Source: Schmidtea polychroa (lineage: Eukaryota). Taken from it: a stretch of 64,000 nucleotides of DNA. Positions 22,244 through 49,194 of this stretch are shown here, piece by piece; positions within the stretch are counted from its first letter, which is position 1, and the number at the start of each line of letters is the position of its first letter. Where the stretch lies: the NCBI GenBank assembly GCA_044892525.1, contig CM097885.1, positions 10,170,001 to 10,234,000 of the forward strand. The letters are read 5' to 3'. The translations under genes and the position numbers were made by a program. The notes beneath the pieces are model-generated. The model was not told the DNA's origin, did not search any database, and saw nothing but the letters and a program-made list of their open reading frames with translations.

Positions 22244-24020
22244 AGTAGATGGTAGTGAGCCCTCCAGAACATAAGCCCTCCACGACACATATACCCCCTC
22301 TCCCCCCGGGAAAATTTTTTTTTTAAAAATAAAAGGTCAAGGTCATTTTTTTTTCAAGGCCAAATTTTAAAATTTAAATTTACAGAGTTCCCGCCAATGG
22401 AATTTATTGCTCGATGACTTATTTTGAAGCCACTACAAGACCTTTCAAATGAGGTATAGACATCTTTATTATCATTATTATTGGTAAAGATATTATTATT
22501 TTTTCAAAATATTATTTTTCAAGGTCAAATTTTAAAGAAAGACATATGACTCATCAAGGCCATTTAAACAAAGACCATGACTCATCCAGGTCGTTTCAAG
22601 GTCATTTCAAGGTCGCGTGACTCATCCAAGGTCATTCCCAAGGTCATATGACTCATTAGAATGAATCATTAAGGTCATATTATTATTTTTTAAAATATTA
22701 TTATTATTTTTCAAAAATATTATTAAGTGTTCTGGCGGGCTCATGGTTTTCGTTTGCCCAGAAGTTATCGTTCTCATTATCTGAATTTATTAATCGATAG
22801 CTTAATTTAAAGCTTAGTGCAAGACCTTTCGAATGAGCTATTGGAGGTATCATCATCATTATTATTGGCAAAATTATTACCATTTTACCAAATATCATTT
22901 TCAAGGTCATATAATTATTATTATTTTTCAAAATATTATTAAGTGTTCTGGCGGGCTCATGGTTTTCGTTTGCCCAAAGGTTATCGTTCCCATCATTTTA
23001 TTTCATCGATCGATAGCTTATTTTGACGCCCAGTACAAGATCTATCTAGGGATATATAAATATTATTATTATCATTATTATTGGCAAAGTTATTAACGTT
23101 TTCCCGAGACCATTTTCAAGGTCATATAATTATTATTATTTTTCAAAATAATATTAATGTCTGGAGGGCTCATGGTTTTCGTTTGCCCAAAAGTTATCGT
23201 TCCCATCATTTTATTTCATCGATCGATAGCTTAATTTGAAGCTTAGTGCAAGACCATTTTCAAGGTCATTTGACTATTATTATTTTTCAAAATATTATTT
23301 TTTCAAGGTCATTTATTTTTTCAAGGTTTTTTTTCAAGGTCATTTAATTTTTTAGAGGTCATTTATTTTTTCAAGGTCATATTTAAAAATTTAAATTTAC
23401 AGAGTTCCCGCCAACAAAAATTGTTCATCGATAGCTCTTTTTAAGCCCAATCCAAGACCTTTCGAATGAGCCATATATAATTATTATTATTATTATTTTT
23501 ATTATTATTATTATTATTATTATTATTATTACTATTATTATTATTATTATTATTATTATTATTATTATTATTATTATTATTATTATTATTATTATTAAAA
23601 TATATACTCCTAGTCTATCCGACAAGATATTCTGTCCCCCTAAGGGTATTGCTAGCAAGGGTACTGCTCACATTCAACAAGTCACATGGATACTGGTCAC
23701 ACTCAACAAGTCACAGGGTACTGTTTACAAAGTTACTGGTAAAAATATTCAAGATAAAACTTTAACAAAGAAATTTTAAATATTATACTTTAAATATACA
23801 CTAAAATTTATTAACACATTCACATTCATCTTCTCCACAGTTGATAACATTTTCAACAACATGATCTATACAATCCCTATATACACACGGTTCAGTATCC
23901 GTAAATTCCTCCATAGGTTCATTAATTTCTTGAATGCTTTCCTCATCATCTTGAGCGTTTTCTTCATCTGTTTCATCAAATCCCGAATCTTCACTCTCTG
24001 CTACCCAGTCTATATTTAAT
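22244..24020 (+). repeat. Left TIR of B (~1.78 kb; TCAAGGTCA and TGACTCA arrays)
   Basis: Inverted relative to ~30809-32585; includes the 3' part of the acidic ORF. Confidence 0.9.
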
Positions 24021-24159
24021 GCGTTTGTAACAGATAATATATCCTCCATTTTCACACCAGATATTTCTGCTAATTTTTCCAATAAAAAGTTTATTATAAA
24101 TTCTAAATATTAAATAATTTAATAATTAACTAATCATATTAACCTTTTTCTGTAGTCAT
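23801..24159 (-). CDS. Acidic protein (homolog of 6842-7263), two exons
   Basis: ATG 24159; 41-nt phase-1 intron 24103-24143. Confidence 0.7.
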
Positions 24160-24253
24160 TATTAGTATTTTAAAACTATAGTATATATTTGTTTATCGAA
24201 AATAAGCGAAAACAAATATAACTAAATACATTTATTAAATACAACAACATTTA

Positions 24254-46700: not shown

Positions 46701-47836
46701 TTCTAGAGGTTGACATCGTCATTCCTGATAGTATACAAGATAAGCTAGATGATTTACCTATAGCTCCTGAGCTTTGTTATCCACCTGGTAGTAAAGTTGA
46801 AAAGCTGTTGTTAACTCATGAGCCTAAGAAAAACTATGTAGTTAATGGTAGAGTTTTGACAGAGTGGTTGAGTTACGGCGCAAAAGTCACAAAAGTTAAT
46901 CGTGCTGTAGAATTCAAGCAAGTAGCTATTTTCAAACGCTATATTGATTACAATACTCAAATGAGAGCAGCTAGTACAGATTCATTTCAGCGAGATTATT
47001 ATAAGTTAAAGAACAACAGTTTATATGGTAAAACCGTGGAAAACCTTAAGAAACGTATAAATTTGAGATTATGCAGCAAAAGCAAAAGATTGATAACTTA
47101 TTGTAGTAATCCTATGTTTCGTCGTAGCATCAAGATTGCGGATGATCTCATTGCTGTTATACTTGATAAGGAAATGGTGTGTTTAGATAGACCAATGTAT
47201 ATTGGACAAACCGTACTTGATTTATCTAAACTTCGCATGTACCAGTTTCAATATAAAGAACTACAGAGTTATAGAGAAGAATTCAATTGTCAAATTAATA
47301 TCGTAGCCGGTGACACAGATTCCTTCTTTTTAGAGTGTAAAAATGTTGATTTACGCTTACAACTGTATCCAAAAATGATTGCCGATGGGCTCCTAGATAC
47401 TTCAAATTATCCGGTGACTGATCCATTGTTCTCAGATAAAATTTGTTCGGTAATCGGGAAATTCAAGGATGAGAATAAAGGAAATCAATATAAAGAATGG
47501 GTGTTTCTTCGACCCAAGTGCTACTCACTCCAAGGAGATAAAAACACTCTAAAAGCCAAAGGAATAAGTCTTACAAATTCTAATATCACCCATGAAGCCT
47601 ATAAAAAAGTGTATACTGATGGTGGAACAGTGAGCATCCAACAAAAGAGAATAGGAAGTGTTAATCATCAGTTGTATACTTTCATTACTGAAAAACGAGC
47701 TCTCCAATGTTTGGATGAAAAAAGGTATTGGTTCAATTCTAATGAAAGCTATGCCTACGGTCACTATAAGATTCGTCAAATGCATATCGCAACTGCTCCG
47801 TCTACAAATGAATGCAAATCGAAACAAGAACTTTAA
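43797..47836 (+). CDS. Protein-primed PolB, 1236 aa, seven exons (Cys/His N-terminus, terminal-protein/OTU-like region, exonuclease, polymerase)
   Basis: Exons 43797, 43845-44072, 44115-44171, 44213-44656, 44706-44867, 44976-45188, 45231-47836 sum to 3711 nt in one open frame; VYADFES, DHDHFTG, FHNLRGYD, YLDVNNLYG, KNNSLYGK, AGDTDS, KCY. Confidence 0.92.
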
Positions 47837-49194
47837 CAATTAAATTTATGTGAATAATAAAATATATATTGTGAATTATTTGACTTCGTTAATTAAAATA
47901 TGTTTTATCATTTAATAATTCATTTGTCCAATTAATTTAGATAATTAGTTTTAAGTAAGAATTATTATTTATCATGAAAAACTTTGCTTTGTTTTGAAAA
48001 ATTAATGCCCATTTTATTTAAATTAACACAGCTTTATTTTATGATAATTACCAATTAAAATTTTATTCAAATTGAATAATTACTAATTAAAATTTTATTC
48101 AAATTGAAATATTATTGTTATAATTTACGCTCTTGTTAGAATATAATGTAAAATTAAAAAATAAATAAATAATAATTAAATAACGTTGGCAATTAAAATA
48201 AAGTATTAATAAACAAATTAATTAATTAAATGTAATAAATTAAAAATTAACTAAAATAAGTAATTAAAGTATAACATCATAAAATAATTAACTAATAAAA
48301 TTAAAGAGAAAAAAAAATAGAAGTAATTAAATAAAATTAAAAATAATAATAATAATAATAATAATTAAAAAGCGTAAGTAATTAAAATAAAATATTAATA
48401 AACTAATAAATTAATTAAATGTAATAAATTAAAAATTAACTAAAGTAAGTAATTAAAATATAACATCATAAAATAATTAATTAATAAAATTAAAAAGAAG
48501 TAATTAAATAAAATGTTAATTTAAAAAATAAATGATTCGATTGGTCTATATTTGATCTTGATATTCCATGACCTTGAAAGTGAGTTGGAGTCCTTACTAT
48601 TCACTACTTTTAACACATGAAAGTTGTTATATTATGGCATTTGCTGCTGATGTTATTCACTGTCACGTCATGTGATGAAGTATACGATTTTAATCGTTTC
48701 AATTATTCCGTTTCACAATATTGATGCAAAGAATCACACTTGACCATAAAAATAAAAAATCATCTGACATTGGGTGCTGCACAGTAAGCTCCGCCAAAAG
48801 AGGTGAGGTTTCACATAGGTGGACTGCATTGTGCGCTAGCACAGCACTTGTCTCTGAAGCGAAGTGAACTCGGGTGGTCTCATTTAATGTTCATGAGTTT
48901 CCATTCTTTATAACTGAATCTTTTAAAAAATAAAGAAGTATTGAGAATCCATTTGACAAATTAACAGAAGTTAAATGCTAATATTGAAAAATTATTCGCG
49001 GCCACATAAAATAATTACGCAGCCCATATGTTGGCCATCCCTGTGGTAGGCCGTACGCGGAATAAAAAATGCTTTAAAAAATTAATGAATTTAATTGGGA
49101 GCTACTGTCCCATTTTTCTTACTCCAGAAATATTGACAAAAGAAAATTTTCTATAAACCTATAAACTATTAAAAAGAAAATAATTTATTATTTA

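Follow-up and report, generated by a model that had tools for sequence, protein, structure and literature searches.

Background

Mavericks, or Polintons, are defined by the joint presence of a protein-primed DNA polymerase B (pPolB) and an integrase (PMC5499653). Animal members with the Alpha (PF03175) class of pPolB have terminal inverted repeats (TIRs) tipped by AGTAG, 6-bp target site duplications (TSDs), an rve integrase, an A32 ATPase, an adenain protease, and a double-jelly-roll capsid protein (PMC8097293, PMC8502044). A preprint proposes, as speculation, that replication modules move on their own (10.64898/2026.10.13.758929), and other accounts of the group include 10.1101/2023.08.22.554363 and PMC6431247. 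Here we examine a 64,000-nucleotide stretch of the 781-Mb, AT-rich genome of the eukaryote Schmidtea polychroa (assembly GCA_044892525.1, contig CM097885.1, positions 10,170,001 to 10,234,000; hereafter the window), which holds three Maverick-related elements, A, B, and C, each with an exact 6-bp TSD. Although the elements resemble animal Polintons in all of the traits listed above, neither B nor C joins pPolB and integrase. A first-pass annotation of the window had suggested that B and C are complementing segments of a divided genome, or else helper-dependent defective elements. Our analysis favors the latter, at a probability of roughly 0.7: B and C would represent separate multi-copy, TSD-flanked partial lineages, each borrowing its missing function from complete Mavericks and not specifically from the other.

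Gene content of elements B and C

Pfam matches agreed with the earlier annotation of integrase, ATPase, protease, and TBP-like genes in element B (Table 1), the major capsid gene being recognized by fold, and the Pfam search of this element returned no pPolB match. A natural homologue 97% identical to the element A open reading frame (ORF) was modelled with a predicted local distance difference test (pLDDT) score of 89.7, and its fold agrees with that of double-jelly-roll capsids (E 5e-17). The B gene at 28965-30217 is thereby identified as the double-jelly-roll major capsid gene; the first of the two core ORFs at 27581-29025 encodes a putative minor capsid protein. The capsid genes are disrupted, as had been cautioned, and the integrase gene is broken as well.

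In element C, PF03175 was found and no integrase or capsid, again as annotated; the ATPase and protease are likewise present in B only. Our analysis adds that C forms a single palindrome, its two 6.0-kb arms being 99.7% identical and each holding a pPolB frame that points outward. In the N-terminal region of the gene, upstream of these frames (43802-45250, mirrored at 38500-39918), short ORFs are separated by GT-AG-like gaps, one of which holds a TA microsatellite, whereas the pPolB of a related family, F, is a 1,379-aa single frame. Judging from this layout, the C pPolB gene is likely spliced; no joint at the predicted introns was seen in contigs of three presumed-RNA runs and one DNA run, and contigs cannot show absence.

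By the definition above, neither element is an autonomous Maverick, B being without pPolB and C without integrase; the two genes occur together in the A, F, and G architectures. The TIRs and 6-bp TSDs of Polintons are present in B, C, and their copies. The separate TSDs annotated for the window copies were recovered as TATACT (22238-22243 and 32586-32591) for B and TTTAAC (35117-35122 and 48609-48614) for C.

Table 1. Maverick-related features of the window, in window coordinates
Feature	Positions	Strand	Remarks
Element A	5118-21365	+	Complete-architecture Maverick, convergent pPolB; TSD GATATT; this copy defective
Element B	22244-32585	+	pPolB-less Maverick core between B/N-type TIRs; decayed member of 18-locus lineage
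B left TIR	22244-24020	+	Terminal AGTAG, ~210-bp subterminal repeats, AAT tract, shared ~92-bp block
TBP-like gene	24797-25297	-	PF00352 E 1e-14
A32-type packaging ATPase	25362-26495	+	Reads through into next ORF in this copy
rve integrase with chromodomain	26482-27650	+	Pfam; frame broken near 26955-27021
Two further core ORFs	27581-29025	+	360-aa and ~125-aa in other copies; interrupted in B
Double-jelly-roll major capsid gene	28965-30217	+	Frame broken near 29582
Adenain-type protease	30282-30629	+	PF00770 (Peptidase_C5) E 2e-6
B-lineage junction	30690-30813	+	Protease 3' flank joined to segment of non-coding palindromic N family
B right TIR	30809-32585	+	Inner junction is copy of left end to 24020
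Element C	35123-48608		13.5-kb pPolB-only palindrome
C left arm	35123-41090	-	99.7% identical inverted copy of right arm
pPolB, 871-aa open frame	35896-38511	-	PF03175 E 4e-32; exonuclease and polymerase motifs present
Short ORFs like pPolB N-terminal region	39032-39918	-	Mirrored at 43802-44688 (+); tblastn to single-frame relative
C centre	41091-42629	+	TIR-type sequence between two inner AGTAG...CTACT termini, G2/N type
C right arm	42630-48608	+	Inverted copy of left arm
Second pPolB, 871-aa frame	45221-47836	+	ORF

Copy number of the partial lineages

Both elements belong to lineages that have spread in multiple copies with TSDs of their own despite the missing enzyme, as helper-dependent elements would (nine of nine C pairs, six B-lineage insertions). 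The exact 27-base end of C occurs 70 times and forms 31 pairs spaced 12.5-15.7 kb apart. All nine of the pairs fetched had distinct TSDs, and the 871-aa frame was kept in 18 of 20 arms. Arm divergence was 0.1-5 substitutions per kb in 12 copies. A motif specific to the C pPolB had 477 matches, and among the 100 matches listed, 74 form 37 outward pairs. Centres vary between copies, and that of one copy is almost deleted; the centre may be dispensable or may have been lost after insertion. Pairs of 14.7 and 15.7 kb were considered as full-length parents and rejected, since they contain only expanded centres.

The B lineage is marked by its upstream junction, where the protease flank meets a segment of the N family and where complete elements run on into pPolB. 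We counted 19 matches to this junction, distributed over 18 loci. The 14 of these loci that were newly retrieved all carry core genes, with no pPolB in ~3.4 kb past the junction; right termini were found in eight. Both termini were obtained for four of the six loci with the left flank fetched, all four with matching TSDs; the window copy and locus L021 bring the demonstrated TSD-flanked insertions of the lineage to six. Two pairs of junction loci with common flanks are probably segmental duplicates. L194 contains a fourfold repeat of a 385-bp stretch of capsid gene.

We consider it highly improbable that B and C are single-copy decay products or fold-back artefacts of assembly. Perfect palindromes can arise as long-read artefacts, and the right-end fold-back junction of B itself has one match genome-wide and is unique to this copy, both of which would fit such an origin. 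Against it stand the 18 B-junction loci and the C pairs, which lie at separate loci with distinct TSDs, have varying centres, and differ by 1-31 substitutions between arms. The prospect that either element was a single-copy accident, which the first-pass annotation had named as a ground for abandoning its proposal, therefore did not materialize for B or for C.

The N segment at the B junction had 1,573 matches genome-wide. N-family members are non-coding palindromes, many present as inverted pairs and ~6-12 kb long where measured, with G2/B-type Maverick ends; in most of them the arms are near-identical (0.3-2.6 substitutions per kb in six of seven). Members were seen at window positions 30703-30813 and at L024-L028, L030, L031, L034, and L038-L040. 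A block of ~92 bp beside an AAT tract (window 23600-23693, 31128-31230, and 41541-41694) is common to the ends of B, F, G2, and N and to the C centre, and N arms contain it at intervals of about 1.9 kb; it is a possible recombination or recognition site.

A second pPolB-less lineage (L166, L170, and L176) forms a 100/100 clade adjoining the G2 cores, with kilobases of N-family arm replacing the polymerase. The pPolB-less cores as a whole are scattered over several places in the core tree, which is poorly resolved, probably because of recombination.

Complete Mavericks with the core of B

A co-directional pPolB of family F accompanies 16 of the 20 capsid copies closest to B (two of the 16 are partial), and the B core is 95-99% identical to that of pPolB-bearing elements. 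The family F polymerase, which is 55% identical to that of C, lies in a frame of at least 1,285 aa in two of the 16. Matching 6-bp flanks were found at the F ends of four of 12 copies examined. The F pPolB motif had 354 matches and the capsid motif 2,017. At G000:C1:8.76-8.85 Mb, the F motif recurs in tandem arrays at ~19.7-kb and 3.46-kb spacing.

Capsid loci with neither the F nor the A motif were sampled by position on one contig (20 loci, 19 after one fetch proved too short). Another pPolB was present in cis at ten, five had no pPolB and a B/N-type TIR end (three of the 19 being the second pPolB-less lineage), and four were unclear. One complete element of this sample, L164, has a B/N-type TIR at its end. 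Searching with the end of the L164 pPolB identified family G2, in which pPolB is followed by a TIR matching the C centre at 24 of 24 loci, 23 of which also match the B TIR; the G2 core was seen directly only for L164. G2 shares the subterminal repeats of B and the centre of C, and A has the tip nearest to that of B.

The first-pass annotation had suggested that a full-length helper like A could serve both B and C, and complete elements with B's core and their own pPolB are indeed common. The window copy of A is itself defective, with a frame-shifted pPolB and a ~530-bp gap in the capsid region.

Origin of the C centre

Sequence blocks shared by the C centre and the B TIRs had been annotated, and these proved to be 69-91% identical. 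The centre matches G2/N ends at up to 91% over 817 bp, with summed bits of 1,263 versus 685 and 542 for the B TIRs, and its terminus agrees with G2 at 16-18 of 20 bases versus 13 of 20 for B. Outside the C family it matched best to L170, a pPolB-less core element, and L040, an N element, both with the G2/N end type. Each C arm begins with a second CTACT that abuts the full terminus of the centre, and no TSD is present there. All 21 young-C junctions recovered were of the G2/N type, whereas older copies have exact F termini (L146 and L156), an F start (L157), or an F terminus upstream (L145). Because young and older copies differ in this way, the centre is a replaceable part of the end of a complete family, swapped at least once, with the F type in older and the G2 type in young copies. 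Derivation from the end of a complete family explains the similarity between B and C without any partnership.

A 130-bp block common to B-lineage copies and the C arm (77%) was considered as a sign of a common parent and set aside as probably a promoter-like word present in both; an N-type end (L153) contains it too.

Other derivatives with C-type or fold-back structure were observed. Nested in an F element at L052:1133-3765 (oriented) is a 2.6-kb element whose outer ends are of the C type and enclose no gene matches. L145:3127-9293 is a single C arm after a short F-type end, with an F terminus on the left, a C terminus on the right, and no TSD found. Rearranged derivatives with a palindromic or inverted layout are known for the A-type pPolB as well (L084, L116/L117, and L118/L119), which suggests that the fold-back process is general in this genome.

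Selection on the partial lineages

Shared variants of the C pPolB comprised 38 synonymous and 15 non-synonymous changes (omega, the dN/dS ratio, ~0.11), and private variants gave 0.78. Compared with older C-type copies, dN/dS was mostly 0.16-0.5, with one value of 0.69. This pattern of substitution indicates that the C polymerase is under purifying selection.

For B, rough majority-codon counts were made that omit L022 and L192 (duplicates), L181 (which groups separately in the tree of cores), and L187, L190, and L194 (partial). An apparent strong purifying selection on the capsid genes (omega 0.03-0.05) was mostly gone after setting apart the variants that pPolB-bearing cores also have: the synonymous-biased variants of pPolB-less cores are mostly common to pPolB-bearing cores (23 of 24 shared synonymous variants in the capsid gene). 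Private changes specific to the B lineage gave an omega of 0.5-0.9, and its capsid changes look near neutral.

Helpers or partners

Several observations weigh against dependence of B and C on complete helpers. The first-pass annotation had asked whether the C-type polymerase ever occurs in a full-length element. We examined 20 atypical loci (18 unpaired motif matches plus the widest pair, chosen from the 477 matches with positions for the 100 listed), and all were arms, fragments, or rearranged palindromes, with no complete element on a C-type pPolB among them; L143, L154, and L157/L158 adjoin pieces of other Mavericks. The C-type pPolB also forms a separate clade (24 rows, support of 100 in the Shimodaira-Hasegawa-like approximate likelihood ratio test, SH-aLRT; 26 near-identical young C rows with identical starts were omitted), apart from which at least five pPolB lineages were found beside cores. 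At the loci examined, no C-type pPolB stands in cis with a core, as the first-pass proposal would lead one to expect, so the parent of C is absent or extinct, just like that of a segment. Among the C-family loci examined, no complete element with the C outer end was seen. For B, no complete element with its exact AGTAGATGG-type end was found among ten G2 termini, four F termini, and A; all but one of the 24 loci of G2 are known by their pPolB 3' end and TIR only, not by their core. The pPolB-less cores are frequent: extrapolating roughly from the 19 loci sampled on one contig, they would make up about a fifth of ~2,000 capsid copies. At 0.6 substitutions per kb, one TIR pair among five others of the B lineage is of the same young age as C, and B-type elements and C therefore overlap in time. 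Finally, among shared integrase variants specific to the B lineage, synonymous changes outnumber non-synonymous ones 6 to 4, with an omega of 0.17 on these small numbers.

Could B and C then be the two obligate segments of one virus? Their complementary genes on separate molecules, separate TSDs, shared TIR blocks, and the lack of any complete parent found for the C pPolB are what such a virus would present. Common terminal sequences are not found. The outer ends of B and C have five contiguous bases in common, as had been cautioned, and 13 of 20 first bases match, compared with 16 of 20 between A and B and 16-18 of 20 between the C inner end and G2; the termini of bidnavirus segments, by comparison, match in the published description (PMC8502044). 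Nor is a complete unsegmented form absent, as families F and G share the core and have their own pPolB. The near-identity of the B core to those of pPolB-bearing elements, the swap of the C centre between F and G2 ends, and the disparity between 18 B-junction loci and 477 C-pPolB motif matches are further objections. Selection gives a mixed picture, the C pPolB being conserved at an omega of ~0.11, the B-specific capsid changes near neutral, and the integrase leaning synonymous on small counts. Obligate segmentation is very unlikely, being largely refuted by the complete F and G2 families, and the divided genome of the first-pass annotation loses its footing: complete elements with their own pPolB are common, the C centre is nearer to G2, and the ends do not match.

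A looser arrangement, in which the C pPolB serves pPolB-less cores and N elements while cores supply integrase and capsid to C, with no exclusivity, is doubtful although less so. Both complementary classes are multi-copy with TSDs of their own, the C pPolB is conserved without a core in cis, the second pPolB-less lineage is a fully supported clade, and, after another C copy, the centre scores highest against the pPolB-less core L170 and the N element L040. Conversely, the outer ends of C, which its pPolB must prime, agree with those of B, G2, and N in no more than 10-13 of 20 bases, G2/N ends are also found on complete elements, and there is no clear lineage-specific selection on the B capsid genes. 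As a tentative extension, the Maverick population might be part-way to a multipartite state, with C and B-type modules spreading separately and complementing each other, and with the C centre acting as a packaging or recognition tag taken from the helper's end and replaced at helper turnover.

We therefore return to helper-dependent satellites as the preferred account. From the observed architectures, TSDs, copy numbers, complete relatives, identity and swap of the centre, and pattern of synonymous change, we infer who supplies what, the fold-back origin, and packaging. C likely copies itself from its outer ends with its own protein-primed polymerase, with integrase likely supplied in trans. 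It likely arose when a short TIR pair beside a pPolB arm primed fold-back, and its centre is a captured end of a complete family, first of the F type and later of the G2 type. Fold-back of the displaced strand would keep the arms alike, a model taken from protein-primed replicons. A single-stranded intermediate is cited in PMC4061559. B likely originated when recombination with a piece of the N family replaced the pPolB arm of a complete element; it would be replicated in trans by an A, G2, or F type pPolB, while recombination between its core and complete elements likely continues.

The spread of both Maverick halves alone with clean TSDs provides genomic evidence that integrase and polymerase act in trans, and a polymerase-only module can apparently persist under selection. 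These findings bear on the speculative proposal that replication modules move alone (10.64898/2026.10.13.758929) and offer a natural system for counting and dating the steps by which a genome moves toward segmentation.

Other features of the window

A fragment of a Tc5/DDE_1 transposase lies to the left of A, as does a 536-aa frame that weakly matches a RING finger (window 16-549 and 690-2300). Between B and C, positions 33893-34129 are a remnant 70% like a divergent Maverick at L172, a further old family whose integrase is 34% identical. A short TBP-like protein (PF00352) is encoded by these Mavericks at 8753-9223 as well as in B (24797-25297).

Comparison with known systems

The literature surveyed, with most subscription papers, Repbase entries, and supplements outside its scope, contained no account of animal Mavericks that are palindromic and polymerase-only, or that lack the polymerase and are multi-copy. 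The inverted arms of C are 6 kb long and contain genes, whereas intact vertebrate elements are reported with TIRs of 46-1,447 bp (PMC8097293). Unlike known Polintons, at least five pPolB lineages here share one core.

Bidnaviruses resemble B and C in having a Polinton-derived pPolB on one of two segments and inverted terminal repeats (PMC4061559, PMC8502044). As described there, they differ in that their segments have matching termini and single-stranded DNA, and the pPolB segment also encodes capsid. B and C, by contrast, have dissimilar ends, are both able to integrate, and occur in one genome with complete elements.

Transpovirons and Tlr1 are, like B and C, related to Polintons with one module lost (PMC5499653; 10.64898/2026.10.13.758929). 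According to the same sources they keep a helicase replicase, whereas B is without any replicase. C departs from them in having a pPolB with intact motifs, no integrase, and a palindromic structure.

The most likely analogy is with non-autonomous or copy-back satellites of Mavericks. Copy-back defective genomes, satellites, and non-autonomous DNA transposons combine long inverted ends, helper dependence, and recurrent origin from complete genomes. B and C would share these traits. Unlike such elements, C has a polymerase that is under purifying selection, is inherited as an integrated family, and carries a swapped centre probably derived from a helper.

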